Positions 1,211-27,738 of a stretch of 64,000 nt of DNA are shown piece by piece (positions within the stretch are counted from its first letter, which is position 1; the number at the start of each line of letters is the position of its first letter). Both the position numbers and the translations under genes were made by a program. Below the pieces are notes generated by a model, which ran no database searches, was not told the DNA's origin, and was given only the letters and a program-made list of their open reading frames with translations. The stretch is taken from contig CAZGQR010000001.1 of the NCBI GenBank assembly GCA_964527765.1, forward strand, positions 25,961 through 89,960. The letters run 5' to 3'. Source of the DNA: an uncultured Planctomycetia bacterium. GTDB lineage: Bacteria > Omnitrophota > Gorgyraeia > Tantalellales > Tantalellaceae.

Positions 1211-2167
1211 CTATCGCCTTCTGATCCTCTTAAAGCCCGCGCATTCGATAAAATTCAGCTTTCCCCTCTTTTCCACCGCGTCCAGCAGAAGGTTCAATCC
1301 CAGCGTGTCGCTCGCAATATGTCCGGCTATCACGAAATTTATGAATTCCGTCTTTGCCTCCTTGTAGCCGGACTCCCTGCAGTGCATCCCGATTATGGTC
1401 TTGATCCCCGACTGGGACAGGCGAGCGAACATCTTGTCCGGCCCTGAGGTTCCTCCTGTCATGTCCACAAATACCTTGCCGGCGGCGGCGTTCTCCTCGC
1501 CGATCAATATGAACGGCCCCGTGCCTTCTCTTGTAGCCTCCCTGTATTCGGGGATCGCTTTCAGGATGTTCAGGACATTCTTCAGCTTTTTCGGTTTTTT
1601 GGTGTCGAAGGTCTTCTGCAGAAAACTTGCCACGCAGTTATCCGCCGCGGTATGGATACACATAAAGGGAATGCCGAGAAGCCTCGCCGCGTCCACGGCC
1701 CTGGTATGATTGCCCGGGGCTATTCCGCGGAAAACCTGCTCTATGCGGTCCTTCATGATACCCTCCGCGATCTCCCTGGTAAGACCATACTTTTCCCATA
1801 TGCGGGGCTGCACATCCATGACCCTGTGAAGCTGCGCAAGGGCTCTTCCGGACGGATGATGCGAAATGACCAGGTCTATGTTCGCGCCCTTTTCGTTTAA
1901 CCGATCGGCCAATAATAATTCGGAAACATGTATATCTATCCCTACCAGTATATTTTTTATATCCTCTTCCCCCGAACCGTTCAATATACGGGTGTCGTAA
2001 TACGGGTTCTTGAAACTTTCCCGGTCAAAACCGGCCCTGTCTATACCCTTGCTTTTCCTGTAATCCTTCCTGGCCTTTTTAAGAATGTCTTCAATGGCCC
2101 GCCTGGGGCGCTGATCCTCTCTGAGGCCCTTTTTAACGGCCAGCTCATAGATCGTTTTGAGTTTCAT
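1211..2167 (-). CDS. Nif3-like dinuclear metal center protein (YqfO/DUF34 family)
   Basis: 318-aa ORF with a VISHHP metal-binding motif, the length and His/Asp pattern typical of the Nif3 family. Confidence 0.7.
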   Translation of the reverse strand: MKLKTIYELAVKKGLREDQRPRRAIEDILKKARKDYRKSKGIDRAGFDRESFKNPYYDTRILNGSGEEDIKNILVGIDIHVSELLLADRLNEKGANIDLVISHHPSGRALAQLHRVMDVQPRIWEKYGLTREIAEGIMKDRIEQVFRGIAPGNHTRAVDAARLLGIPFMCIHTAADNCVASFLQKTFDTKKPKKLKNVLNILKAIPEYREATREGTGPFILIGEENAAAGKVFVDMTGGTSGPDKMFARLSQSGIKTIIGMHCRESGYKEAKTEFINFVIAGHIASDTLGLNLLLDAVEKRGKLNFIECAGFKRIRRR

Positions 2168-2168
2168 T

Positions 2169-2735
2169 TTACTCCTTTACTGATTGTTCCGTAGCGACCA
2201 GGATCCCCTCCACTACTTCATCTTTTGTTTTTTGCTCCGATATCCCGACAATGCCTGTCATCCAGCTGTAGATCTGCGCGTCCAGCCCCACGAAAAACAT
2301 GCACGTCCTGGATCCTTCAACGGCGGACTGGCGTACATAATCGAGCGGGACAAGCAGCAGCATTATCCCTATTATCCCGAAAAATATGAATGCCCGCAAA
2401 GAAGCTACCAGCGCCCCGCCTATTCGCTCAATAAGAGCAAGTTCCTCACCTACGATGATATTGAAAACCCTTTCCAAAATCTTAATAACTGTGAATAAAG
2501 CCGCGGAAATAACAAAGAACGACACCGGTTTTGCCCATTTCTGCAGCAAAAAACCAAATATCGCTTCAGATAGAAAACTATAATATCCTATTGAAACGAA
2601 TATTAAGATAAACCAGCCCACAAGAGAAAGGAGTTGACCGCCGACACCGGTCCTTAATCCTTTATAAACCATTCCCAATAAAAGGATTATGAAAAGTATA
2701 TCCAGCCAGTTAATGTTTGTTAATGTTATGGGCAA
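2169..2735 (-). CDS. cvpA: CvpA-family membrane protein
   Basis: 188-aa ORF with four predicted TM helices and the N-terminal pattern of the colicin V production protein family. Confidence 0.55.
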   Translation of the reverse strand: MPITLTNINWLDILFIILLLGMVYKGLRTGVGGQLLSLVGWFILIFVSIGYYSFLSEAIFGFLLQKWAKPVSFFVISAALFTVIKILERVFNIIVGEELALIERIGGALVASLRAFIFFGIIGIMLLLVPLDYVRQSAVEGSRTCMFFVGLDAQIYSWMTGIVGISEQKTKDEVVEGILVATEQSVKE

Positions 2736-2837: not shown

Positions 2838-4136
2838 CTAACAAAAGGCCTTTATTTTTTCCTTTTTTATGTTCCCGGCTATCAAGCAAGGCGCCTCTTC
2901 ATCAACGCTATCAACTTTTACTCTTACTATGTTCCCCTCAAATCCCGCAAAACCATCCAATTTCATCCTAACATATTCACCGGTATAACCTTCGGAAAAT
3001 GCTCCTCCGGATCTTCGCTCCACCAGAACATCCACTTCCCTGCCGACAAATCTGCTGCAAAATTCCGCCTGAAGTTCATTTCCGACCTTTATTAACCGTT
3101 CCGCCCTGCTTTTTGCCGTTTCCGAAGGCACTTTGCCGCTGCTTCGAAAAGAACGCGTCCCCTTCCGGTCGCTGTACCTGAAGACATGCAGCCGCGAGGG
3201 CTTTATCTTCCGGATAAATCCCAAGGTCCGCTCAAAATCTTTTTCACCTTCACCGGGAAATCCCACAATGACATCCATGGTCAAACCTATAAAGGGTATC
3301 CGTTCTCGGATCCGCCCGACAAGCCGGCTGAACTGTCCCGTGGTATACTTCCTGTTCATCGCATTCAGCACTCTGTCTGATCCGCTTTGAAGAGAAATGT
3401 GCAAATGCCGGCAGATCTTACGCGAACCGGCTATTTCTCCTATTAAAGAGTCATCTATATGATTGGGTTCGACGGAACTGAGCCTTGCCCGAAAATTCCC
3501 CGGGAGTTTATCTATCTTTTTCAGAAGATCCGAGACGCTTTGCCCATTGCTCCCCCTCCAGGCCCCGAGACAGATACCGGTCAAGACGATCTCCCTGTAG
3601 TCCGCTTCAATGAGTCGGGATGCCTCGGTCAGGATGTCCCGTTCGTCCCTGCTTCTCGAAGGGCCCCTGACAAGACTCACCTTGCAATAAGAACAATCCT
3701 GATCGCACCCATCCTGTATTTTTATAAAAGCCCTGGTATGAGAGCTAAAGCCCGAAATCTGTTCTTTCGCGCGCTCATCGCTTCTGTCCACGCCAAAAAG
3801 AGAGCCAAGGATGCGGGGCAATTTGAGCTTATCCCTGCCCGGCACCACCATGTGCACTTCAGGCAACGACTGTAACCTCTCCATGTCTTCCTTAAAGACC
3901 GCATAACATCCCGTAACGAACACTTTCGCGCCGGGATTCTCCCTTTTCACTCTTCGTATCGACTTTACCGTCTTTATGTCAGCCTGTTCTGTGACAGTGC
4001 AGGAATTCACAATGACCAGATCAGCGTCCTGTATCCCGGATTCCCGGAAACCGAAGTGTAGAAGATTTTCTCTCAGAACCTGCCCTTCATACTGATTGAC
4101 CTTACAGCCCAGTGTTTTTATAGCAAATTTTGGCAT
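2838..4136 (-). CDS. mtaB: MiaB-family radical SAM methylthiotransferase, MtaB-like (tRNA t6A37 methylthiotransferase)
   Basis: ORF track 2838..4154. The likely start is M7 (MPKFAIKTLGCKVNQYE), which matches the MtaB/YqeV N-terminus. It has the radical SAM CxxxCxxC motif (CDQDCSYC) and a C-terminal TRAM domain, and it sits next to rsmE, the conserved yqeU-yqeV synteny. Confidence 0.8.
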   Translation of the reverse strand: MPKFAIKTLGCKVNQYEGQVLRENLLHFGFRESGIQDADLVIVNSCTVTEQADIKTVKSIRRVKRENPGAKVFVTGCYAVFKEDMERLQSLPEVHMVVPGRDKLKLPRILGSLFGVDRSDERAKEQISGFSSHTRAFIKIQDGCDQDCSYCKVSLVRGPSRSRDERDILTEASRLIEADYREIVLTGICLGAWRGSNGQSVSDLLKKIDKLPGNFRARLSSVEPNHIDDSLIGEIAGSRKICRHLHISLQSGSDRVLNAMNRKYTTGQFSRLVGRIRERIPFIGLTMDVIVGFPGEGEKDFERTLGFIRKIKPSRLHVFRYSDRKGTRSFRSSGKVPSETAKSRAERLIKVGNELQAEFCSRFVGREVDVLVERRSGGAFSEGYTGEYVRMKLDGFAGFEGNIVRVKVDSVDEEAPCLIAGNIKKEKIKAFC

Positions 4137-4194
4137 TTTTATTGGCCCGACCATGCTCTAACCTGACAGATCTAACCACTTTAGATGTATGACG

Positions 4195-4935
4195 TTACAG
4201 AGAAAACTCGTAACCGAGCGCGGACAATACGAACAGTCCCGCGGTATCGCTTCTTAAGGTCCTTTTTCCCAAGGATATGAATTTGCAGTTGCCGCTGTCC
4301 GCCATCTCTGTTTCTTCCGGCGTAAAATCTCCTTCCGGCCCGATGAATACCAGGATCTTGCCCGACTTGAAGCCGGCCAGGGACTCCTTGATGGAAACGG
4401 TTTCACCGGCTAAACAGGCAAGCAGGGTCAGGTCATACAGGTCTATTTGTCCGGCTATTCCCCTGTACTCCGTGATCCCGTCGATCGCCGGAACATTTAC
4501 CCTACCGCACTGTTTTGAGGCCTCAATGGCTATTCTTTTCCATCTCTTGACCTTCCTTTTGCAGACCGCGGGATCCCTGGGCCTTGCGATCGTCCTTTCA
4601 CTGACCAGGGGGATCATCCGGGAAACGCCAAGTTCGGTCGCCTTTTCCACTATATAATCCATCCTGCCCTTCCTGGGAATGGCCTGGGCAAGAATGACCT
4701 CCGGGGCGCTTTCCGCGGGAGGTTTTTCCGTGCGCACGATCTCGACGATCATCTTCTTATCTTTCCTGTCCGCCTCTTTTATGAACCCTACATATTCCTT
4801 GCCTGTTCCGTCAAATACGACGATCTGGTCGCCGTCCTGCATCCTCATGACATCCAGGATGTGATGAGCTTCCCTTCCGTCGACCATGATCCTGTCTTTT
4901 CTTACATTTTCTTTCGGAACATAGAACCTTCTCAT
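4195..4935 (-). CDS. rsmE: 16S rRNA (uracil1498-N3)-methyltransferase RsmE
   Basis: 246-aa ORF with an RsmE-like N-terminal PUA-like region and a SPOUT C-terminal domain, adjacent to mtaB. Confidence 0.75.
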   Translation of the reverse strand: MRRFYVPKENVRKDRIMVDGREAHHILDVMRMQDGDQIVVFDGTGKEYVGFIKEADRKDKKMIVEIVRTEKPPAESAPEVILAQAIPRKGRMDYIVEKATELGVSRMIPLVSERTIARPRDPAVCKRKVKRWKRIAIEASKQCGRVNVPAIDGITEYRGIAGQIDLYDLTLLACLAGETVSIKESLAGFKSGKILVFIGPEGDFTPEETEMADSGNCKFISLGKRTLRSDTAGLFVLSALGYEFSL

Positions 4936-4943
4936 TCGTCCCT

Positions 4944-6482
4944 CTATTCCTTTATTTCTTTCTCACCGAATACTTCCGCGGTGAATACATAGATCTCACA
5001 GTCCCCGGTCTTCCATGCATCCGGAGAGATGCCGGCTTTATGCGCGCAGAGGCTGCTCATGAAGTGTTCCCTGTCCCACCCGGTCTCGTCGGCAACCTGC
5101 GGCAGATATACTCCGCTCCTCCATCCGCTTTTCACCATGACTCCGTGTTTCCCCATCTCGATCTCGTTGTAGTCGTCTATTTTTTTCATCGGCGATAAAG
5201 CCGATATTTCTACATCGATATCGTTCAGCTCCTCGAGCGTCACGGGCGGAAATCTGGGATCCTCGGTAGCGGCCGATATAGCCATGTCCCGCACGGTTAG
5301 ATAAAGGGGTCCCGTGGCGGCCATGTGTCCGATACATCCTCTCAGCTGCCCGCGCTCGTGCAGCGTCACGAACGCCCCCATGTCCTGCTCAAGCGCTTTA
5401 TCGCCCGCTTTCACGTCCAGACGCTTTCCCGTTTCAAGATAATGCCGTATGGTGTCCCGCGCTATCTTTAAGAGTTCTTCTTTTTGCTCACGACTGAACA
5501 TATCCCCTTCCTCCTCTTTCTCTGTTACCGCTTTCTCTTTTTTTCCGCTTTTTATGAATGCCGCGCTCAGATACCCCACAACCTTGTCTTTCGAGCCGGC
5601 GGTATCCCCGGAGTTCGCATATTTTAATATTTCAACTTTATCCGCCCCCAGTCTTTTGCAAGCCGACATGACCGAATAAACGGCACCATACCCGCACATA
5701 AGCTCGTGCCGTTTCTTCAGGCTGTAAAAGTACAGCGAATCCGGATCAAACGCCTTTATTATCCCGATCGTTTCCGCGTCTCTTTTGTTTGTAATATCAT
5801 AGGGCAAATAATGGCACATGTCCGTCGAGGCTATTAACACAAAATCTTTTTCATCGCGCAAAATGTCATAAAGCGCATTTGCCAAAAGCCGGCAATTTTC
5901 CAGTCTCTGGTCGCAAAGTGCGATCATCACCAGGCGCGCATCCTTTAATACCGTCTGGATAAACGGTATTTCCATCTCCACGGAATTTTCCGCAGTAAAG
6001 GCCTGGGGTATATCCTGTATATTCTCACTATAAGCGATGAGTTTATTCGTGATATCCGTGTCGATCACGGCTTCTCCCAGCGGTGTGACAAAAGTCTTAT
6101 CGGTAAAGACAGCAATGCGGTTGGGAAAATATTTCCTGTGAGTAAAACCTACCACTATGACCTTGTCGGGATTTCCGGCCATTATCGCTTTGTACGTGTA
6201 TGCAGCCACGGGCCCGGAGAACCTGAGCCCGGCATGGGGGGCTATGGCGCCCACGATCTCCCCTTCGATCCTGCCTACGCGTGCGTTGTGCAGATATCCC
6301 TCGAGCTCTGCCCTCAACTGAACAGGCGAGGCATTATACCAGGAACCTGCCAGATCGGCCTGCTTGGCATCAGCGCAGGCCCCGGCCATAACAAAAACAA
6401 TAACAAGAACTGCGAATAGAAAACGTCTGGCCATAAGATACTCCCTTACCCTGGATTTATGCTGAGCTTTGAGATGCTCCAT
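4944..6482 (-). CDS. Fusion of a Memo-like domain (AmmeMemoRadiSam protein B family) and an AMMECR1 domain (protein A family), with an N-terminal signal peptide or TM anchor
   Basis: 512-aa ORF. Residues about 40-305 are Memo-like (GSWY, IAPHAGLRFSG). Residues about 330-512 are AMMECR1 (GAFVTLHERGQLRGCIGH, VYLPQVADETGW). A hydrophobic N-terminus (FLFAVLVIVFVMAGACA-DA) makes M17, at coordinate 6434, an alternative start. Confidence 0.75.
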   Translation of the reverse strand: MEHLKAQHKSRVREYLMARRFLFAVLVIVFVMAGACADAKQADLAGSWYNASPVQLRAELEGYLHNARVGRIEGEIVGAIAPHAGLRFSGPVAAYTYKAIMAGNPDKVIVVGFTHRKYFPNRIAVFTDKTFVTPLGEAVIDTDITNKLIAYSENIQDIPQAFTAENSVEMEIPFIQTVLKDARLVMIALCDQRLENCRLLANALYDILRDEKDFVLIASTDMCHYLPYDITNKRDAETIGIIKAFDPDSLYFYSLKKRHELMCGYGAVYSVMSACKRLGADKVEILKYANSGDTAGSKDKVVGYLSAAFIKSGKKEKAVTEKEEEGDMFSREQKEELLKIARDTIRHYLETGKRLDVKAGDKALEQDMGAFVTLHERGQLRGCIGHMAATGPLYLTVRDMAISAATEDPRFPPVTLEELNDIDVEISALSPMKKIDDYNEIEMGKHGVMVKSGWRSGVYLPQVADETGWDREHFMSSLCAHKAGISPDAWKTGDCEIYVFTAEVFGEKEIKE

Positions 6483-6576: not shown

Positions 6577-6596
6577 AAAACCGCAATTTCCGCGGT

Positions 6597-6672
6597 GGGG
6601 CAGTAGCTCAGTTGGGAGAGCATCACGTTCGCAACGTGGGGGTCGTGGGTTCGAATCCCATCTGCTCCACCA
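6597..6672 (+). tRNA. tRNA-Ala (anticodon CGC)
   Basis: 76-nt cloverleaf GGGGCAG..CTGCTCCACCA with a G3:U70 identity pair, anticodon loop TTCGCAA, a TTCGAAT T-loop and an encoded CCA. Confidence 0.9.
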
Positions 6673-6715: not shown

Positions 6716-7666
6716 TCAACCCACAAAAACTTTGATGCATTCTTCCACCGTGGCGAAATGTATATCCACCGTATCTTCGCGGTTAACCGCATATCCCCCG
6801 GCCAAGGTTATTGCTATCGGCACGCCGAAATTGCGCGCCTGGGCACACACAAAATTGTCTCTTTCTCTCAGGCCTTCCTTCGACACCGCAAGGGCGCCCA
6901 GCTGATCCCCCTCATACGGATCGGCCCCGGCGAGGTATAGAATGATCTCCGGTTTAAATGTATTTATGATCTTCGGCACGCTATCATAAAGATGATGAAG
7001 GTACACCTTGTCACGGGTGTAATCCCTCAGGCCGATATCAATATCGCTTTTCGGTTTATGAAAAGGATAGTTATTTTCCTGGTGTATTGAAAAAGTGAAT
7101 ACGGAAGGATCTTCCTGAAAAATAAAAGCGGTCCCGTTGCCCTGATGAAGGTCGCAATCTATGACAAGGGCTTTTTTCACGGCGCCGCTCGCCTGCAGCG
7201 CCTTTATGCTGACCGCGATGTCGTTCAGCATGCAGAAACCCTCGCCATGATCGGGAAAGGCATGATGAAATCCGCCCCCCAGATGCACTGCCGCTTTTGT
7301 TTCAAGCGCGCGGCGCGCCGTGGTCAACGTCCCCCCGCAACATGTAAATGAAGCTTCCACTAGTTTATGCGAAAACGGAACTTCAAGCACGGCCACCTCT
7401 TCCGCGCTCAGGGCCCCGGCCTGAAGCTTGTTAAGATATTCGGCCGTATGCACGGTCCGGATCTCCGCTCCTGTTATCGGCTCGGGTAACACGGTTTCGA
7501 ACTTGCCCTTCAGGGAATCATTCGAATCCACGCGTTTTTTCAGAATTCTGTACTTGGAGGTCGGAAAGACATGGTCCCCTATATCAATATAATAGGATTC
7601 CGAATAAATGATCGGTATTTTGAGTGGCGCGTCCGCTAACATATTATCAAGCCAGTTCTTCGACAA
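6716..7666 (-). CDS. Histone deacetylase-family protein (AcuC / acetylpolyamine amidohydrolase-like)
   Basis: 316-aa ORF with the HDAC signatures HHGDG-like (GGGFHHAFPDHGEGFC), DIDxHHGNG (DCDLHQGNG) and a Gly-rich loop. Confidence 0.8.
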   Translation of the reverse strand: MSKNWLDNMLADAPLKIPIIYSESYYIDIGDHVFPTSKYRILKKRVDSNDSLKGKFETVLPEPITGAEIRTVHTAEYLNKLQAGALSAEEVAVLEVPFSHKLVEASFTCCGGTLTTARRALETKAAVHLGGGFHHAFPDHGEGFCMLNDIAVSIKALQASGAVKKALVIDCDLHQGNGTAFIFQEDPSVFTFSIHQENNYPFHKPKSDIDIGLRDYTRDKVYLHHLYDSVPKIINTFKPEIILYLAGADPYEGDQLGALAVSKEGLRERDNFVCAQARNFGVPIAITLAGGYAVNREDTVDIHFATVEECIKVFVG

Positions 7667-7976
7667 AATTCTCGACAGCTTTTTTCATGTGCTGCCAGTC
7701 TTCCTTCGAGTGTATGCCGAACTTCTGTTTGCGCTTCCAGCCATCGTCTGATTTTTGCCACAGATAGAAGCAAATCTGTTTTTTCGCGTAGCTTTCCAAC
7801 AGAACCACAGCTGCCCACCAGCCGAATTTTTTGTTTATGGTGTGGTATTTCAGCACCTTCAGAGGCGCTTTTATCGGCACTCTTTCCTCTCCGCCTTCCG
7901 CCCCCTCAACGACAGGCAGCACCTGCTCCTTTTCCTTTCCGCGCACATTGGATTCTTTTGAAACATCTTCGATCAT
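7647..7976 (-). CDS. Hypothetical protein (109 aa)
   Basis: Its stop overlaps the start of the upstream wHTH gene by 4 nt (ATGA coupling). No family was recognised. Confidence 0.35.
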   Translation of the reverse strand: MIEDVSKESNVRGKEKEQVLPVVEGAEGGEERVPIKAPLKVLKYHTINKKFGWWAAVVLLESYAKKQICFYLWQKSDDGWKRKQKFGIHSKEDWQHMKKAVENFVEELA

Positions 7977-8191
7977 TCTTTCCCCCTTACGTTAGTAAGC
8001 CGAACCGTATAATCCGGGCTGTCTCCTTCCAGAACGATATGCCCTTCCCTGGCAAGCCAGCCCGTGCTCATCAACACAATATCCCTGTCTTTCTGCAGAT
8101 CCTTGATGATGTCCTCCATCTGAGCTGTCTTATCATGGTTGTCGAGATAATCCCATATTTCACCGGCCACAAGTCCTATCCTTGTAATCAT
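7973..8191 (-). CDS. Small winged-helix protein (resembles the DUF2582 family)
   Basis: 72 aa. GEIWDYL and GWLAREGHIVL resemble the short DUF2582 wHTH proteins, by recollection only. Confidence 0.45.
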   Translation of the reverse strand: MITRIGLVAGEIWDYLDNHDKTAQMEDIIKDLQKDRDIVLMSTGWLAREGHIVLEGDSPDYTVRLTNVRGKE

Positions 8192-8233
8192 TTCCTCACC
8201 TCCTCTCTTGAAATTCGGGACTTCGTCCGGCGC

Positions 8234-8509
8234 TTATAAGTGCGCACCGCCTCCGTCCCCCTTTTTCAGCCTCTGGTTATAAGTCCCGCATCTCGGACAC
8301 CTTGAGATGTCTTCATGCCTACTGTCAATATACGTTAACGAACAGATCGAGCAGTGCCATATATGCTCCTCATCCGAGCTGAAGGTCTTCAGTTTGGTGC
8401 CAAAGTCAAAAAAAGCCCATATGACCAGGATGAGCACCGCCGTGAAAAGCAGGTACAGAAAAAGCACCATGGAAATATCCAGTTTTATCATGCGATCAAT
8501 CCCTGGCAT
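8234..8509 (-). CDS. Small membrane protein with a C-terminal CxxC..CxxC zinc ribbon
   Basis: 91-aa ORF with one TM helix (VLFLYLLFTAVLILVIWAFF) followed by HCSICS...CPRCG. Confidence 0.4.
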   Translation of the reverse strand: MPGIDRMIKLDISMVLFLYLLFTAVLILVIWAFFDFGTKLKTFSSDEEHIWHCSICSLTYIDSRHEDISRCPRCGTYNQRLKKGDGGGAHL

Positions 8510-9188
8510 TCAAGATGACATCCACTTCCTGCCATTCATCTGCTGCCGCGGCTTCTTTTCTCGGCTCAAAAATCCATCCCCTGACAAACTTCGAAGCTGC
8601 GATATCAAGCCGGGGATACCCGGTCGTAGTCAACGGTTCCACCTTCTTGACGTTCCCGCCGGCGTCTATCAATACCTTGACCCTGATCTTGAACGTCTCC
8701 TCGCCTCCGTAAAGAGCGCGCATTACAGAAGGGGCTTCGGGCCTGTAAATGACTTTTCTTTCTTTCGCCTGTCCGGTGTAATCAGTCCCCCATTTCCCCA
8801 ACACAAAATCATCCACATCCAGATCCAGGGTAAAATCGGGCACGGCCTTGGAGCCGGTCAAAAAACTCATTACAAGGGTGTCCATGTTGTTTTCCAGGTA
8901 ATCCGGGAATTCCTGAACGGTCGACCTTCTTTTCGGGGCCGCCACTTCCAGTTCCCTGCTCTGCGACGGCAAGAATATGTACCTGTAAGTAGTCATCACG
9001 ACCGGGTTCACGTTCTCCAGCATGATATCGAACGCTGTCTTTTTCAGGATCGGCCCGAGAAAATCGATACGGGTATAAGGATGCGCTCTCTTTATGTCAT
9101 CCGGGGCTATTATTGTCACCGCGGACATCCCCACAATATGCACACCCAGCGATATCAGCAGTGCTATCCTTAAATTCCTGCCTATCAT
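8496..9188 (-). CDS. tonB: TonB-family energy transducer (TonB C-terminal domain)
   Basis: ORF track 8496..9269. The probable start is the internal MIGRNLRIALLISLGVHIV TM anchor. The C-terminus (RVKVLIDAGGNVKKVEPLTTTGYPRLDIAASKFVRGWIFEP) is a TonB_C fold. Confidence 0.6.
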   Translation of the reverse strand: MIGRNLRIALLISLGVHIVGMSAVTIIAPDDIKRAHPYTRIDFLGPILKKTAFDIMLENVNPVVMTTYRYIFLPSQSRELEVAAPKRRSTVQEFPDYLENNMDTLVMSFLTGSKAVPDFTLDLDVDDFVLGKWGTDYTGQAKERKVIYRPEAPSVMRALYGGEETFKIRVKVLIDAGGNVKKVEPLTTTGYPRLDIAASKFVRGWIFEPRKEAAAADEWQEVDVILNARD

Positions 9189-9204
9189 GATTTCCCTTGT
9201 CGGT

Positions 9205-9597
9205 TTACTGCGTCGTGGCAATGTTGATCTGCCTGACATCAACCTGCCGGCAAATATCCCAGACCTCAATGACCTTACCCAGGTCCGATTTCTTATCCGC
9301 TCTTATCAGAAGCGGCTGGTCTTCCCGTGCCGCAACAGTTATGCGGGAGACGAGTTCATCTCCGCTAACGGGCCTTTCATTTATGAAAACCCCGTTATCC
9401 TCCGTGATCGTCACTATAAGCAATTCCTTGTGCAGGACCTCGCTGGTAACGGCCCTGGGCAGATTGACCCTTATCCCCGGCTGGAAGACAAAACTCGAGG
9501 TCAGCATAAAGAATATGAGCAGCAGGAATACCACGTCTATCAGCGGCGCGATATCCAGGCGCCCTTTTTCCAGAAATACTTTTCTTTTAAACTTCAT
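9205..9597 (-). CDS. exbD: ExbD/TolR biopolymer transport protein
   Basis: 130 aa with a single N-terminal TM (IDVVFLLLIFFM) and an ExbD periplasmic domain. Confidence 0.8.
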   Translation of the reverse strand: MKFKRKVFLEKGRLDIAPLIDVVFLLLIFFMLTSSFVFQPGIRVNLPRAVTSEVLHKELLIVTITEDNGVFINERPVSGDELVSRITVAAREDQPLLIRADKKSDLGKVIEVWDICRQVDVRQINIATTQ

Positions 9598-10219
9598 TTT
9601 CCTCTCTTTTTGTCCCGAGTATGTTTATGATGTCCGTCGCGCTTTTTTCCATCTCCAGCACGAAGCCGTCGACCTTGCTGACAAGAAAATTATATGCGAC
9701 GTATGTGGGTATCGCGACCGAAAGGCCCGCCACCGTAGTGATAAGAGCCTCCCAAATACCGCCTGCCAGGTCTCCGGGATTGATCGGCATCAGCACGATC
9801 GCCTTCTGCTCGATGACCTGGAACGCCCGCACCATCCCGGTCACGGTCCCCAGAAGCCCGAGAAGCGGAGATATGTGCGCTATAGTCGCCAGCGCGCCAA
9901 GGTTCTTCTCCAGGCGAGGTACTTCATGCAGGCCTGCATCTTCTATGGCTTCCTTTATTTCTATCCTGGGCCGATCATGTTTAAGGATGCCCGCTTTGAG
10001 TATGTGAGCTATGGGGCCGGGCATCGCATTGCACTTATCTATGGCCTCCATGATCTTGTTCCTTCTCAGCGTCTCGGCTATGTCCTCCATGAATTCTTCG
10101 GTGTTGATCTTGGCCCGCCTAAGATGCCATAACCTTTCCAGTACCACCGCAAGCGCTATGACGGAGCACAAAAGTATAAGAAACATCAACGGTCCGCCTT
10201 TAATTATCAGTCCCCACAT
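9587..10219 (-). CDS. exbB: MotA/TolQ/ExbB proton channel
   Basis: 210 aa with three TM helices and the ExbB/TolQ C-terminal region (LGLLGTVTGM). Confidence 0.8.
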   Translation of the reverse strand: MWGLIIKGGPLMFLILLCSVIALAVVLERLWHLRRAKINTEEFMEDIAETLRRNKIMEAIDKCNAMPGPIAHILKAGILKHDRPRIEIKEAIEDAGLHEVPRLEKNLGALATIAHISPLLGLLGTVTGMVRAFQVIEQKAIVLMPINPGDLAGGIWEALITTVAGLSVAIPTYVAYNFLVSKVDGFVLEMEKSATDIINILGTKREENEV

Positions 10220-10252
10220 ATCTTCCTCCTTTGATCGCTTCCGCGGTATGCC

Positions 10253-12700
10253 CTATCTGGCATAACGCTTCAGCAGTTTTATCTTTTCCTTAGCGTAATC
10301 CGCCTCCTGACCCTCGCCTTCACTCAGTTTCCGATATATATTGAACGCTCTCTCGTTCTTGCCGTGTTTTTCAAGAAGTTCCGCGCATTTGAGACGGGCA
10401 CGCGTGACCCAGAATCTTCCTTGAGGATATTTGTATTCCACCTTAAGATATTCCTCGATCGCCTCATCCTCCATGCCTGTCTTCTCATAACATTCCGCAA
10501 CATCGAACTGTATCTGGGCGTTCGACTCGGAATTTTCTTCCGTAAGAGCGACCTTGAAATACTCTATGGCCAGGACATATTTGCCCTGGATCTTCAATAT
10601 TGTCCCTATCCTGTTATTCGCGATGTTCGTTATGCTGCTCTCGGGATATTTTTTAATGAGGGTCTCATACCTGGGTACCGCCTTATCATAATCGCCCTCC
10701 TTTTTATATATGTCCCCGAGCGCCAGTATCGCCTGCGGTGTCCACTTGCTGAACGGACGCTGCTTTTCTATGCTTTCAAACTGAGCCAGACTTTGATCCG
10801 CCATGTTATTGTCATACAGCACCCACCCCAACCAGTAAGACGCATTGTCCGCAAACGGGCTGTCCGGATATTCTTCTATTACCTCAGAAAAATATTTCTG
10901 TGCGTTATTAAAATCCCCTTTGCCGTAAAAGTATTCACCGAACCAGAGTTTTATCCCGGGAACGAAATGGCTCTCTCCGCTTTCCTTAAGCATCCTCTTG
11001 AATATCCCCAGCGCTTTCTTCTCCTTCCCCATCTTGTAATAAGCCCAGCCGGAATGATACTGCGCCCTGAGAAGGAGATCCTTATCCTTCGTGGAGCTGA
11101 TGATCTTTTCATAGATCTCCGCGGCAGCTTCATAGTCGCCGCCGTTATACATGGAATTGGCTTTCTGCAGAGCGGCTTCATTCCGAAGATTACTGCCCGG
11201 GAATTCTCTGAGTATGTGTTCAAACTGCCCTGCGGAGGTCCTGTAATCTCCCTTCTGCACGTAAAGCAGGCCAAGCTGATAATGGGCCTTGTCGAGAAGG
11301 GTTGACTCGGGAAAGTTCACCACCAGCGACTGAAAAGCAAGTATAGCAGCATCTTCCCTGTTTAACTTTTTCAATATGGACCCCACCTCATACTGCGCAT
11401 GATCCGCCAGCATGCTGTGCGGGAAGTTCCTGAGCACCCTGTCATAAACGTCAACGGCGCGTCCGTTCTCGCCGCGACCCTGAAGAATGTCCCCGATACT
11501 GCATAAAGCACTTACCACCAGGTCCTCATTGTCGGACAATTCCACCGTCTTATCATATTCTTCCAGCGCTTTTGCCTCATCTCCCGCACCAAGATACGCC
11601 CATCCCAGATTGTAATGCATTTCGGATGAAAACTCCCCGTTGGGAAACTTTTCAAGAGCTTCACGGTATATCCTGATGGTATCGGGTATGTTCCCGCTTT
11701 TGTACAAGGCCTCACCCAGCCAGAAATACGCGTCATCGGTCCATTCGTTTTGCGGTATCTCGTAGATGACCTCCTGATATGCCTTCAGGGCTTTTCCGTC
11801 ATTGCCTTTCTTGAGATTGATGCGGGCGATCCCCATCAGCGCCGCGCTCCTGATCCGAGGATCGGTACTGTCATCTACGACTTGCCTGAACCATTCCTCG
11901 CTGCTATCCAGGTCCCCGCTCTGCAGGTAGGCCCTGGCCAGTTTATATTCAGCGATCACTTTTGGCGGTTTATTTTCACTACCGCGCAATGAATCTTTCA
12001 AGCTCGCGGCGGCTTCGGAAAAATTACCCAGCTTATAGTAACTGTCTCCCAGCATGTAATAAGCATCAAAAATATGCTCGCTCACCGGGTACTTTTCGGT
12101 AAATGCCTTTAATTCCGGAACCACGTCGGCATACCTGCCCGTCTTGTACAGAATCTCCGCGATCTTATACCGGGCTTTCACTGCCAGCTCTCTTTCCGGA
12201 TACAGCTGAATAACTTCGCGGAACGCCTCTATGGCCATGGGGTGTTCGCCAAGCTTTTCGTAACACCACGCCTGGGAATAACGGGAATACGGCACGTATT
12301 CACTCGTCGGATACGATTCGATCACCATTTGGTAATAGGCCAGGGCCTGTTCAAAGTCGCCCTCCTTGAAATAGACTTCGGCTATCCAATAAGTGGCGCG
12401 CGCGGCGAAATCGCCGTCCTTGAACCTTTCAAGCACAATATTGAATTCCGTAAGTGCCTTGGCGGGGGAAGATTTTTCATAATACACTCTTCCCAGAAGC
12501 GAACGCGCCTCACCCTCGACGTCTTTTGAGATGTCCAGCGCAAGCAGGGAGTTCAACTTGCTCTCCGCCAGATCATAAAAACCGTCCTTGACGGCTTTCC
12601 TGGCAAAATCGAGTTCGGGTTGAAACGTCTTTTCACCCGCTTCTGAAGGTAAACACCACAAGAACACAGCTATCGACACCAGATATATGATTTTCTTCAT
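10253..12700 (-). CDS. Secreted tetratricopeptide-repeat protein (815 aa)
   Basis: Signal peptide (MKKIIYLVSIAVFLWCLPSEA) followed by many TPR-like repeats (AxxYxxxG, W-LG-Y motifs). Confidence 0.75.
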   Translation of the reverse strand: MKKIIYLVSIAVFLWCLPSEAGEKTFQPELDFARKAVKDGFYDLAESKLNSLLALDISKDVEGEARSLLGRVYYEKSSPAKALTEFNIVLERFKDGDFAARATYWIAEVYFKEGDFEQALAYYQMVIESYPTSEYVPYSRYSQAWCYEKLGEHPMAIEAFREVIQLYPERELAVKARYKIAEILYKTGRYADVVPELKAFTEKYPVSEHIFDAYYMLGDSYYKLGNFSEAAASLKDSLRGSENKPPKVIAEYKLARAYLQSGDLDSSEEWFRQVVDDSTDPRIRSAALMGIARINLKKGNDGKALKAYQEVIYEIPQNEWTDDAYFWLGEALYKSGNIPDTIRIYREALEKFPNGEFSSEMHYNLGWAYLGAGDEAKALEEYDKTVELSDNEDLVVSALCSIGDILQGRGENGRAVDVYDRVLRNFPHSMLADHAQYEVGSILKKLNREDAAILAFQSLVVNFPESTLLDKAHYQLGLLYVQKGDYRTSAGQFEHILREFPGSNLRNEAALQKANSMYNGGDYEAAAEIYEKIISSTKDKDLLLRAQYHSGWAYYKMGKEKKALGIFKRMLKESGESHFVPGIKLWFGEYFYGKGDFNNAQKYFSEVIEEYPDSPFADNASYWLGWVLYDNNMADQSLAQFESIEKQRPFSKWTPQAILALGDIYKKEGDYDKAVPRYETLIKKYPESSITNIANNRIGTILKIQGKYVLAIEYFKVALTEENSESNAQIQFDVAECYEKTGMEDEAIEEYLKVEYKYPQGRFWVTRARLKCAELLEKHGKNERAFNIYRKLSEGEGQEADYAKEKIKLLKRYAR

Positions 12701-25030: not shown

Positions 25031-25604
25031 TGAACAGATATTTTCTGCTCCCTATCAGATAAGAAACACCGCTTACTATGGTCAACGTGACAGTTATGAG
25101 CATGAGTATAAAAATAAGCTGTCTGTACCAATATTCGAAGGAGGGATTCCAAAAGCCAAATGTCCGCACGCCCGATTCCTTGATCACGATGAATATCAAT
25201 ATCACGAGTATGGACAGCATCTGCGAGACAGTTTTTTGCTTGCCTCCTGCTCCCGCGGGGAGAACTTTATTGTATTTCAAGGCCACAACGCGGATGCTGG
25301 TGATCACAAATTCCCTCATGATGATGATAACCACCATCCATGCCGGTATAAGTTTCATCTCCACGAACGCAAGAAAAGCGGCAAGGACCAGTATTTTGTC
25401 CGCCACGGGATCCATGATCTTGCCGAAATCGGAAATGGTATTATATCTTTTAGCAAGAAACCCGTCCAGATAATCGGTAAGAGCGGCAATGATAAAAATA
25501 CCCAGCGCGGCGACCTTACAGAACACCCCCTTCGAGAAAAGAAAGATCATGAACGCAAAGGTCAATATTATCCTGGTCAGCGTGATCTTATTGGGTAAAT
25601 TCAT
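25014..25604 (-). CDS. pgsA: CDP-diacylglycerol--glycerol-3-phosphate 3-phosphatidyltransferase
   Basis: 196 aa with the CDP-alcohol phosphatidyltransferase motif DYLDGFLAKR...DPVADK. Confidence 0.8.
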   Translation of the reverse strand: MNLPNKITLTRIILTFAFMIFLFSKGVFCKVAALGIFIIAALTDYLDGFLAKRYNTISDFGKIMDPVADKILVLAAFLAFVEMKLIPAWMVVIIIMREFVITSIRVVALKYNKVLPAGAGGKQKTVSQMLSILVILIFIVIKESGVRTFGFWNPSFEYWYRQLIFILMLITVTLTIVSGVSYLIGSRKYLFNEKGT

Positions 25605-26932
25605 ACAGCTTCTCCGATAAGGTCATATTCCATGGTCCCGGTTATGCGGACATCCGCGAATTCGCCGGTTTTCACGTTGCTTCCCCTGACGTATATCACC
25701 CCGTCTACCTCAGGGGCGTCCATCTGGGCCCTTCCCACGAACTGCTCCGGATCAGCGGGGTCTTCTTCATCTATCAGCGTCTTCAGTTTTTTATCAAGAA
25801 ATTTCAGGTTGTTCCCGGCGGATATCTTTTGCTGGAGCCGCATAACCTCGTCAAACCTTTCCTTCTTTATTTCATCCGGGACCTGCCCCTCAAAGGTAGC
25901 CGCCGCAGTACCTTCTTCCCGCGAATAGATGAACGCTCCGAGACGATCGAAGCTGCTATCTTCCAGAAAATCCAGAAGTTCCCTGAACTCATCTTCGGTC
26001 TCGCCCGGGAACCCCACGATCACGGAGGTCCGTATCGTAACTCCCTCGATCTGCTTTCGGAGGCGTTCGACCAGCATTGCGATATCGGTCTTTCCCGTAC
26101 GCCGGTTCATGCTCCGTAATATCCTATCATTTACATGCTGTATCGGCAGGTCCACATATTTGCATATATTTGCCGTATCTGCAAGAACTCCTATTAGTTC
26201 GTCCGTGAAATGCGCGGGGTGAGTATATAAAAGCCGTACCCAGCCGTCTTGCATGGTCGGGCTTATTTCCTGCAGGAGTTCTGCAAGTTCCGTTCTTCCT
26301 GTCCTGTCGATACCAAAAGAGGTAGTATCCTGCCCTATCAGTATAAGTTCCTTTATGTCGTGCACGGCCTTCAGCTTTTCTATTTCCGTCATGACGGATC
26401 CTATTGTCCGGCTGCGGCACGGTCCTTTCAGCTGCGGTATTATGCAGTACGAGCACCTATTGGAACATCCTTCCTGTATCTTGACATACGCCTGGTGCGG
26501 TGGGGTCAGGATCTTTCTTTCATAGAGATGGCCGTAAAGAAAATCGGGCTTTGGATCCACTTCTTTTATCTTCCCGCCGGAAAGAAGTGAATCCATCATG
26601 CCGGGTATTTTCGTAAAATCGGCGGTCCCGAACACCCCGTCTATTTCCTTTATCTCATCCATGAGCTCGTCCGGATGTCTCTGGGACAGGCAGCCGGCTA
26701 TAACAAGCTTTTTTATCTTCCCGTTTTTCCTCAGATCGGCCAGCTGAAGGATCAGGTCGATCGATTCCTGCTTGGCATCCTGGATAAAACCACAGGTATT
26801 GATTATAGCTATGTCCGCGCCTGCGGGAACCTCGACGATGCTGAAACCTGCCTGCTCAAGAAGCGCGAGCAGAACTTCACTGTCAACTAAATTGCGGGGG
26901 CAACCGAGACTTAAAAGATAGGCGGTTTTCAT
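25601..26932 (-). CDS. rimO: Ribosomal protein S12 methylthiotransferase RimO
   Basis: 443 aa with the RimO N-terminus LSLGCPRNLVDSE, a radical SAM motif CSNRCSYC and a TRAM domain. Confidence 0.9.
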   Translation of the reverse strand: MKTAYLLSLGCPRNLVDSEVLLALLEQAGFSIVEVPAGADIAIINTCGFIQDAKQESIDLILQLADLRKNGKIKKLVIAGCLSQRHPDELMDEIKEIDGVFGTADFTKIPGMMDSLLSGGKIKEVDPKPDFLYGHLYERKILTPPHQAYVKIQEGCSNRCSYCIIPQLKGPCRSRTIGSVMTEIEKLKAVHDIKELILIGQDTTSFGIDRTGRTELAELLQEISPTMQDGWVRLLYTHPAHFTDELIGVLADTANICKYVDLPIQHVNDRILRSMNRRTGKTDIAMLVERLRKQIEGVTIRTSVIVGFPGETEDEFRELLDFLEDSSFDRLGAFIYSREEGTAAATFEGQVPDEIKKERFDEVMRLQQKISAGNNLKFLDKKLKTLIDEEDPADPEQFVGRAQMDAPEVDGVIYVRGSNVKTGEFADVRITGTMEYDLIGEAV

Positions 26933-26940
26933 GTGCAGAC

Positions 26941-27738
26941 CTATTTGAGACGAGTGACCCAGGTGTCACCGATCCTGATCCCGCCTGAGGAAATTTTTAT
27001 ATTCTTCACAACCCCGGCGGCGATTTTGCCGATCCTGCGGTTATTAACAGTAAAATCCAATTTATCCGCTTTACCGGTCCACACGGTAAGGGTCCCGTCC
27101 GATTTCCAGGTCTTTGAATCTCCCTTTTCAAGGACTCCTTCGAAGATTTTGTCCTTTTCACTGGTAACTTGCAGCCATGCATCTTCGCGGGCTTTCAGGG
27201 TAAGCGTAACAGAAGCGCTTGTCCGTGCGGCCGGAGCAATACGCTTTGAGACTTTTTCTTGTGTTTTGGCAGGCGCGGCCGTTATCTTTTTCGCCGTAAC
27301 TGCCGTTTCTTTCGTCTGCCGCGAGAGCATCATTTTTGATTTCATCATACCTATGAGCACAAAGATCAAAAACACGAGAATAACTGAGAGTATAGCCGCG
27401 AGCGCCATCTGCAGCCTTTTCTCCGTGAGCGCGCCAAGGACCTCATCCTTTTCCTCTTTCTCTTTTGCTCCCAGATCAAATTCCCGCCCCGATATGGTGG
27501 GAGCGATCGATTCGTATTCTTTCATCACGTTGTCGGGGTCCAGCCCGAGAACTATGGAATACTTTTTCAGAAAGCTTTTCACGTACAGTTTTCCGATCCT
27601 GTCGAACACGCCGTTTTCAATATCCTTGATCACGGCCGGGTGTATGCGGCTTTTCCTATAGGCGTCTTCCACGCTCAGGTTAAGCTTTTCCCTTGCTTCT
27701 TTAAAAATATTTCCGATCTCTTTGGATGTCGTTGCCAT
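26941..27738 (-). CDS. rodZ: Cytoskeleton protein RodZ
   Basis: 265 aa with an N-terminal XRE HTH, a single TM helix and a C-terminal beta domain (DUF4115-like). Confidence 0.7.
   Translation of the reverse strand: MATTSKEIGNIFKEAREKLNLSVEDAYRKSRIHPAVIKDIENGVFDRIGKLYVKSFLKKYSIVLGLDPDNVMKEYESIAPTISGREFDLGAKEKEEKDEVLGALTEKRLQMALAAILSVILVFLIFVLIGMMKSKMMLSRQTKETAVTAKKITAAPAKTQEKVSKRIAPAARTSASVTLTLKAREDAWLQVTSEKDKIFEGVLEKGDSKTWKSDGTLTVWTGKADKLDFTVNNRRIGKIAAGVVKNIKISSGGIRIGDTWVTRLK

Follow-up and report, generated by a model that had tools for sequence, protein, structure and literature searches.

The proteins Memo and AMMECR1 are of ancient origin, occur almost universally and are linked to human disease, and their biochemical function is poorly understood. 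AMMECR1 was counted in 2019 among the top-priority uncharacterised archaeal families, and the archaeal proteins PH0010 (1VAJ), MM0484 (1ZQ7) and ST0229 (1WSC), which are stand-alone and cytoplasmic, are listed as uncharacterised (PMC6393860). Human MEMO1 (PDB 3BCZ; iron-bound, 7KQ8; copper-bound, 7L5C) is likewise a stand-alone, cytosolic protein and has no radical S-adenosylmethionine (SAM) partner. In the AmmeMemoRadiSam system, AMMECR1 (protein A, TIGR04335) and Memo (protein B, TIGR04336) are usually separate, signal-less cytoplasmic proteins co-encoded with a radical SAM enzyme (TIGR04337); the literature that we searched mentions "AmmeMemoRadiSam" only in passing, and we found in it no description of a signal-bearing Memo or AMMECR1 protein. 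Here we analyse a 64-kb stretch of DNA (hereafter, the window) from contig CAZGQR010000001.1 of an uncultured bacterium of the phylum Omnitrophota, in which a single gene encodes proteins B and A, in that order, as one polypeptide of 496 amino acids (aa) behind an N-terminal segment resembling a secretion signal. On balance we favour the view that the product of this gene is an AmmeMemoRadiSam B–A pair directed to the cell envelope, that is, a putatively exported Memo–AMMECR1 metalloenzyme.

Domain organisation and active-site residues of the fusion

The mechanically defined open reading frame (ORF) of the fusion extends over positions 4944..6482 of the minus strand, with the stop codon at 4944–4946, and an earlier note on this DNA had accordingly described a 512-aa polypeptide. 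This ORF does exist; it lies on the minus strand, however, and translation probably starts 16 codons later, at ATG 6434, because (i) a Shine–Dalgarno sequence, AAGGGAG, can be read 6 nucleotides (nt) upstream of this codon and none upstream of ATG 6482; (ii) the called length of the database protein P0001, which is 99% identical to the fusion, is 496 aa; and (iii) homologues of the fusion begin with M-[KR]-[KR] and a hydrophobic stretch exactly at the methionine encoded by ATG 6434. A still later start at Met16 (ATG 6389), which would drop the hydrophobic segment, was rejected: homologues have no methionine there and the hydrophobicity is conserved. Residue numbers refer throughout to the 496-aa protein. 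No further Memo or AMMECR1 paralogue was found within the window.

Both domains score far above the cut-offs of the Pfam and NCBIfam hidden Markov models, which bears out the fusion proposed in the earlier note: the Memo domain reaches 198.7 bits against PF01875 (cut-off 27) and 239.7 bits against TIGR04336 (cut-off 26), and the AMMECR1 domain 196.3 bits against PF01871 (cut-off 25) and 186.4 bits against TIGR04335 (cut-off 99). They thus score as bona fide proteins B and A. The AlphaFold2 model of the fusion, computed with 46 homologues, has a mean predicted local distance difference test (pLDDT) value of 93.7 and comprises an N-terminal helix (residues 2–22) and two compact domains, with a disordered stretch (residues 299–309) in between. 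In Foldseek searches, the Memo half of the model matched human MEMO1 with a template modelling score (TM-score) of 0.81 at about 25% identity, and the AMMECR1 half matched archaeal 1VAJ and 1ZQ7 with TM-scores of 0.74–0.77, in agreement with a sequence search that gave about 41% identity.

The five metal-site residues of human MEMO1 lie in motifs that align with PHAG, THR, TDMCH and MCG in the fusion and correspond to H67, H99, D205, H208 and C247, all invariant across 46 diverse sequences. The LRGCIG motif shared with the archaeal AMMECR1 proteins is formed by L364-R365-G366-C367-I368-G369; all six residues are invariant in a 15-sequence alignment, and the 46 sequences share L364, R365, G366, C367 and G369 without exception and I368 in at least 90% of cases. 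More generally, the fusion keeps every family-invariant residue of the 46-sequence alignment. Both of its domains look catalytically intact, since the metal-site and LRGCIG residues are retained. The window protein differs from MEMO1 and from the archaeal proteins in that each domain is one half of a signal-bearing fusion, with AMMECR1 as the C-terminal half.

The N-terminal segment and its conservation

The N-terminus of the fusion, MARRFLFAVLVIVFVMAGACADA|KQADLAG, shows the n-, h- and c-region layout of a Sec signal, and its hydropathy (3.42) is the highest on the contig. Among other proteins of this contig, an N-terminal hydrophobic segment is absent from the cytoplasmic UvrA, RsmE, MtaB, DnaG, RpoD and PFK and from HDAC, and present in the envelope proteins examined, namely the YbgF-like TPR protein, ExbB, ExbD, TonB and CvpA, the fusion scoring highest. 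The presequences of 112 Omnitrophota homologues are 23 aa long in the median, with an n-region charge of +2 and an uncharged run of 17 residues. Relative to the invariant lysine that opens the Memo domain, alanine occupies position −3 in 78 and position −1 in 70 of these 112 proteins, and position −2 is variable. By sequence rules, the segment thus combines a positive n-region, an h-region within the 7–15-residue range, small residues at −3 and −1 and conservation in homologues, the features of a pre-protein processed by signal peptidase I (SPase I). The layout, its conservation and the same-contig comparison all agree with the secretion-signal-like N-terminus that the earlier note had described. 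The cleavage site proposed there, ACA|DA, fares less well: family conservation favours ADA|K, because the AxA site of the family precedes the invariant lysine. The hydrophobic core is flanked by a charge of +1.95 on its N-terminal side and of −0.94 in the 30 residues that follow it; therefore, an orientation with the N-terminus inside and the C-terminus outside (N-in/C-out) is predicted. The fusion would accordingly consist of a 23-residue Sec-type signal directly followed by the first conserved strand of Memo, a flexible linker and AMMECR1.

Two other readings of the segment were rejected. The A-G-A-C stretch departs from the lipobox [LVI][ASTVI][GAS]C and its cysteine is not conserved in close homologues, which speaks against a lipoprotein. 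Export by the twin-arginine translocation (Tat) pathway through RRFLF fails likewise: the arginine pair is mostly replaced by KR, KK or K, and a Tat-like pattern occurs in 4 of 117 close homologues.

The fusion and its signal had been called unusual; they are rather the rule in Omnitrophota. All of the 120 best homologues are B–A fusions of 480–560 aa, nearly all with a signal, and a scan of GTDB species genomes with the 15-sequence alignment yielded 80 loci, 77 of which encode a fusion with a signal. Other uncultured phyla commonly have signal-bearing fusions, too. When 1.84 billion cluster representatives were searched without filters, 2,578 clusters matched at E≤1e-30, and nearly all of the top 150 are fusions of full length. 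Among 142 full-length cluster representatives, 75 have an N-terminus of SPase-I or transmembrane type, 47 have a lipobox followed by a tether of 11–48 aa and 20 have neither; altogether, about 85% of these nearest representatives have a Sec-type signal, a tethered lipoprotein signal or a zinc ribbon with a transmembrane helix. The last arrangement is found in P0032, P0040 and P0053 (58–64% identical to the window protein), where the signal is replaced by a CPHC...CLYC zinc ribbon and one transmembrane helix of roughly 22 residues; as far as the sequence tells, this implies that the Memo domain lies outside, in an N-in/C-out orientation. Part of the signal-less family members in databases are artefacts, as exemplified by P0487: its gene call begins at the signal cleavage region (within L086:6850-7060), and the in-frame upstream sequence, MMKKNLILAILFFFFLSGICLA, is a signal that the gene caller lost. 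The genes themselves are annotated, as "protein B/protein A" by JGI and "protein B" by NCBI, and the window gene is an ordinary member of this large family.

Note that one locus (L083:6001-9338) encodes a lipoprotein-type fusion, then a radical SAM protein of 309 aa, which has no NCBIfam match at E≤1e-8, and then a second Memo protein that is stand-alone, signal-less and scores 323 bits against TIGR04336.

Radical SAM and DsbD_2 partners

Within the window, two ORFs carry a CxxxCxxC motif, mtaB and rimO (Table 1). MtaB, the radical SAM neighbour of the fusion, scores above the TIGR01579 cut-off and does not match TIGR04337, so that it is a methylthiotransferase and not the cognate activase, as the earlier note had stated. 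A tblastn search of the 64-kb window with a bona fide TIGR04337 enzyme was also negative. The claim that the window contains no cognate enzyme therefore stands, and the idea of a cognate gene hidden in it was discarded. Roughly 9 kb of additional contig (contig positions to 90,342) yielded neither a TIGR04337 nor a DsbD_2 homologue.

The phrase "without the radical SAM partner" thus describes the locus in the window correctly; it does not describe the architecture. In 25 of the 80 loci, a radical SAM ORF lies directly upstream of the fusion on the same strand (the one of the 25 that was scanned, in L031, scores 374.5 bits against TIGR04337, for a cut-off of 220), and all 25 fusions are signal-bearing. 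About 22 of these 25 loci have, between the fusion and rsmE, a gene for a DsbD_2 membrane protein (PF13386, 4e-24), which also matches DsbD_TM and contains the conserved membrane-embedded cysteine motifs GPCxxxCGP and LPCxPL. In L031, the genes for the radical SAM enzyme, the fusion, the DsbD_2 protein, RsmE and MtaB abut or overlap one another, and we read the TIGR04337 gene of these related Omnitrophota as co-transcribed with the fusion. The DsbD_2 partner resembles the CcdA/DsbD transporters (PF02683, PF13386) in these matches and motifs; unlike in the described systems, no periplasmic thioredoxin-like acceptor was seen, the gene is absent from the window, and the family includes non-redox transporters.

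The triad formed by the radical SAM, fusion and DsbD_2 genes stays clustered through rearrangements. It occurs without rsmE and mtaB in L087 and L088, where the fusion is of the lipoprotein type. In the sister group of the window clade (L018, L089 and L090), the three genes are split into separate transcription units inside a span of 5 kb. A neighbour-joining tree of the fusions places the window protein in a clade (L001-L015 and L038) whose loci all have rsmE, usually mtaB, and neither partner; no radical SAM or DsbD_2 gene was found within 10 kb on either side of the fusion in any locus of this clade. On this tree, at least three joint disappearances of the two partner genes from the locus can be counted. 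The absence of a partner is, on the evidence of these loci, a locus-level trait of the window clade, in which both genes appear to have been lost from this place.

Whether the loss goes beyond the locus bears on how the window protein works. In a lineage devoid of both partner genes genome-wide, an exported Memo–AMMECR1 protein would work alone, as eukaryotic Memo and AMMECR1 do; to our knowledge, eukaryotes have no radical SAM partner. The negative searches in the window, on the rest of the contig and around the window-clade loci are in line with this possibility, and so is the joint disappearance of the two genes from the locus in at least three clades. However, the search covers about 73 kb of one genome, the partners in the sister clade are merely uncoupled and lie a few kilobases away, so that relocation is as likely as loss, and the fusion keeps all family-invariant residues. 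We therefore put genome-wide loss at a little below an even chance. The NCBI accession blocks of the fusion proteins and of the radical SAM proteins did not overlap, and the gene contexts of the radical SAM proteins led back only to the arrangement of the sister clade.

Other genes accompany the partners in some of these loci. In L018:2913-5027 (+), L089:11086-13194 (−) and L090:11089-13203 (−), a polytopic membrane protein of roughly 700 aa with a spermine/spermidine-synthase-like domain is encoded between the radical SAM and DsbD_2 genes. In L084:1058-5977 and L085:927-5977, the genes 5′ of a signal-bearing fusion encode a Peptidase_M54 protein, a PCMT-like methyltransferase, a 249-aa radical SAM protein, a TIGR04337 enzyme (318 bits) and a DUF72 protein; this cluster also has a diverged TIGR04337-like paralogue that scores 88 bits, below the cut-off. 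One close homologue is labelled Elusimicrobiota.

On which side of the membrane does the fusion act?

The scheme that we favour is as follows. Sec would export the pre-protein and signal peptidase I would cut it at ADA|K; the resulting mature two-domain metalloenzyme would be active either in the periplasm or at the periplasmic face of the inner membrane. Its chemistry would rely on the His/His/Asp/His/Cys metal site of Memo and the invariant cysteine of the AMMECR1 LRGCIG motif, and its substrate would be associated with the envelope or the membrane rather than being RNA. In related lineages, the DsbD_2 protein may provide a conduit for thiols or electrons, or for a small molecule, across the membrane. 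The cognate radical SAM enzyme would come first in the sequence of events, working on the cytoplasmic side, with either the substrate or the not yet exported pre-protein as its target. Such an order would have parallels: the anaerobic sulfatase-maturing enzymes are cytoplasmic radical SAM maturases of sulfatases that are exported and end in the periplasm. In the HXS system (HxsB/C–HxsA), a cytoplasmic radical SAM enzyme matures the signal-bearing periplasmic effector HxsA (PMC13128918). No relationship in sequence exists, and the likeness is one of analogy, not of membership. The relatives that carry a lipobox with tether (47 of 142) or a zinc ribbon with a transmembrane helix offer independent topological clues that would favour export.

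Several observations weigh against this scheme. The mature protein would begin, at position +1, with an invariant lysine, which is less than ideal for export through Sec. The order fusion–rsmE–mtaB, kept in 53 of 81 loci and down to about 40% identity, links the fusion to cytoplasmic RNA-modification genes and would fit an RNA-related role; Memo–AMMECR1–radical SAM systems have reportedly been placed in a context of nucleotide-base modification. One could accordingly imagine that the fusion takes part in RNA modification in the cytoplasm together with RsmE and MtaB and that its apparent signal is an artefact of annotation or start-codon choice, all the more as the three genes are tightly packed in the window (gaps of 8 nt between the fusion and rsmE and of 40 nt between rsmE and mtaB). 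We find this hardly credible. The presequence is physicochemically conserved over hundreds of homologues, most of which have no internal start codon after it, one apparent lack of a signal is that of the truncated gene call P0487, and the triad persists where rsmE and mtaB are absent. Because the triad is found elsewhere without these two genes, we regard their linkage to the fusion as a phylum-specific housekeeping operon and not as functional coupling.

More serious objections come from the radical SAM partners. Of 113 full-length Omnitrophota TIGR04337 homologues, 104 have a signal-peptide-like N-terminus themselves, with K/R residues, an uncharged run of 13–19 residues and sites such as FSLA|Q, located about 40 aa before the first cysteine cluster. 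In addition, a single ORF of L026 (8888-11437, plus strand) encodes an 849-aa protein in which one signal-like segment precedes radical SAM (TIGR04337, 371 bits), Memo (237 bits) and AMMECR1 (183 bits) domains. This triple fusion has no second hydrophobic segment, and a DsbD_2 gene lies 2.3 kb downstream, adjoining rsmE. As they belong to a single polypeptide, its three domains must lie on one side of the membrane, and since a radical SAM domain outside the cytoplasm is hard to imagine, L026 favours a cytoplasmic, membrane-anchored topology.

Generalised to the window protein, this would make the N-terminal segment an uncleaved anchor that holds Memo–AMMECR1 on the cytoplasmic face, beside an anchored radical SAM enzyme and the DsbD_2 protein, to act there on a substrate embedded in the membrane, for instance a lipid or isoprenoid. 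The segment shared with the radical SAM enzymes (those of L087 and L088 included) and the layout of L026 speak for this arrangement, as does radical SAM chemistry, which requires SAM, an Fe–S cluster and a low-potential reductant; a gene for a cytoplasmic DUF362/ferredoxin-like protein precedes the radical SAM gene in L087 and L088. It is nonetheless rather unlikely in our judgement. The positive-inside rule predicts C-out for the fusion and the radical SAM enzyme alike, the hydrophobic cores are short (median 14–16 residues) and followed by an AxA site, and the variants with lipobox and tether or with zinc ribbon and transmembrane helix are hard to square with it. In L084 and L085, moreover, a signal is present on the fusion but missing from its TIGR04337 enzyme (318 bits), an arrangement that fits a split topology, as expected if the fusion is exported and its partner stays inside.

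The C-out prediction for the radical SAM enzymes conflicts with their chemistry, and a last way out is to take it at face value, the whole Omnitrophota module including the radical SAM enzyme being extracytoplasmic and the CcdA-like DsbD_2 protein keeping cysteines reduced or supplying electrons or a cofactor. The N-in/C-out prediction itself, with N-flank charges of up to +6 (e.g. P0288), argues for such a module. In the loci examined, DsbD_2 also tracks the signal-bearing radical SAM enzymes (clade B, L087/L088 and L026) and is absent from L084/L085, where the radical SAM enzyme lacks the segment. However, we know of no Fe–S or radical SAM enzyme exported through Sec, nor of a SAM pool or Fe–S assembly in the periplasm; thiol/disulfide potentials are too high to reduce a radical SAM cluster; and a twin-arginine motif is found in 1 of 112 sequences. 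We hold this reading to be very improbable. A 2026 preprint describes giant Omnitrophota proteins in which many normally cytoplasmic domains, radical SAM among them, occur in proteins mostly predicted to be signal-bearing or membrane-anchored; this pattern can be counted in favour of an extracytoplasmic module and is a further ground for caution about topology in this phylum.

Gene neighbourhood

The fusion appears to be the first gene of its transcription unit, since a terminator-like hairpin with a T-run ends the upstream HDAC-family unit (Table 1). Downstream of the genes listed in Table 1, dnaG and rpoD follow the conserved 318-aa ORF beyond the start of the window (contig genes in L082), and the exact 318-aa protein is present on 12 contigs. 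This order suggests that the fusion heads a housekeeping operon of the macromolecular-synthesis type, fusion–rsmE–mtaB–cvpA–orf318–dnaG–rpoD. No riboswitch or leader RNA was found 5′ of the fusion gene. Farther upstream, positions 6716-12700 of the minus strand encode an HDAC-family deacetylase, small ORFs (one of them DUF2582), TonB, ExbD, ExbB and a TPR protein of 815 aa that contains nine YbgF/CpoB-like repeats. About a dozen related loci keep this block upstream of the fusion; the TonB/ExbB/ExbD/TPR genes recur in 10–12 loci and the HDAC gene in 6.

Table 1. Features of the window and of related loci (window positions unless a locus is named; residues of the 496-aa protein)
Feature	Position	Strand	Evidence or remark
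Memo–AMMECR1 fusion gene, 496-aa pre-protein	4944..6434	−	ORF, domain matches, structure model; start by Shine–Dalgarno sequence and homologues
In-frame 5′ extension of the ORF, 16 codons, probably untranslated	6435..6482	−	No Shine–Dalgarno sequence at ATG 6482; P0001 and homologues begin downstream
Shine–Dalgarno-like AAGGGAG	6441..6447	−	Read from the sequence
Predicted Sec/SPase I signal peptide, residues 1–23, cleavage A21-D22-A23|K24	6366..6434	−	Hydropathy, −3/−1 Ala rule, modelled helix
Memo (AmmeMemoRadiSam protein B) domain, residues 26–291	5562..6359	−	PF01875 1.3e-58, TIGR04336 3.3e-71
Lys/Glu-rich interdomain linker, about residues 292–321	5472..5561	−	pLDDT <50 at 299–309; no domain match
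AMMECR1 (AmmeMemoRadiSam protein A) domain, residues 322–489	4968..5471	−	PF01871 3.5e-58, TIGR04335 2.8e-55; PDB matches 1zq7 and 1vaj
rsmE (16S rRNA U1498 N3-methyltransferase)	4195..4935	−	TIGR00046 8e-50; 3′ of the fusion
mtaB (ms2t6A methylthiotransferase), non-cognate radical SAM neighbour	2838..4154	−	TIGR01579 405.6 bits, cut-off 357; no TIGR04337 match
cvpA	2169..2735	−	Downstream of mtaB
Conserved 318-aa ORF	1211..2167	−	Only a sub-threshold NIF3 match
Terminator-like hairpin and T-run ending the upstream HDAC-family unit	6580..6596	−	Consensus scan only
tRNA-Ala	6597..6672	opposite to fusion	
rimO, second MiaB-family radical SAM gene	25604..26965	−	TIGR01125 482 bits
Signal-bearing radical SAM enzymes in relatives	L031:8878-9993; P0272-P0390; L087:5952-7004; L088:5910-7004	+ (L031)	
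DsbD_2/CcdA-like genes in relatives	L031:11440-12084; L087:8470-9129; L088:8595-9245; L018:2236-2883; L089:13230-13862	+ (L031); − (L018)	

Implications for the AmmeMemoRadiSam family

The value of these observations lies in the family-level pattern, namely the putatively exported B–A fusion, the DsbD_2 protein and the signal-bearing radical SAM enzymes, and in the topological paradox that it raises, rather than in the window gene. A broad generalisation would be that, in Omnitrophota and some neighbouring uncultured phyla, AmmeMemoRadiSam is an extracytoplasmic or transmembrane system in which a secreted or lipid-anchored Memo–AMMECR1 protein, a DsbD_2 conduit and a radical SAM enzyme, in an extreme version exported itself, act on an envelope or membrane substrate; we regard it as improbable in this general form. 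The DsbD_2 protein is in any case a candidate fourth component of the system, and a radical SAM enzyme that proved to be exported would be the first extracytoplasmic one. If the fused pair is truly exported by a large bacterial radiation, sometimes as a lipoprotein and clustered with a radical SAM enzyme and a CcdA-like protein, this would argue for a chemistry of the membrane or envelope, and the search for the function of Memo and AMMECR1 would shift away from RNA and nucleotides.

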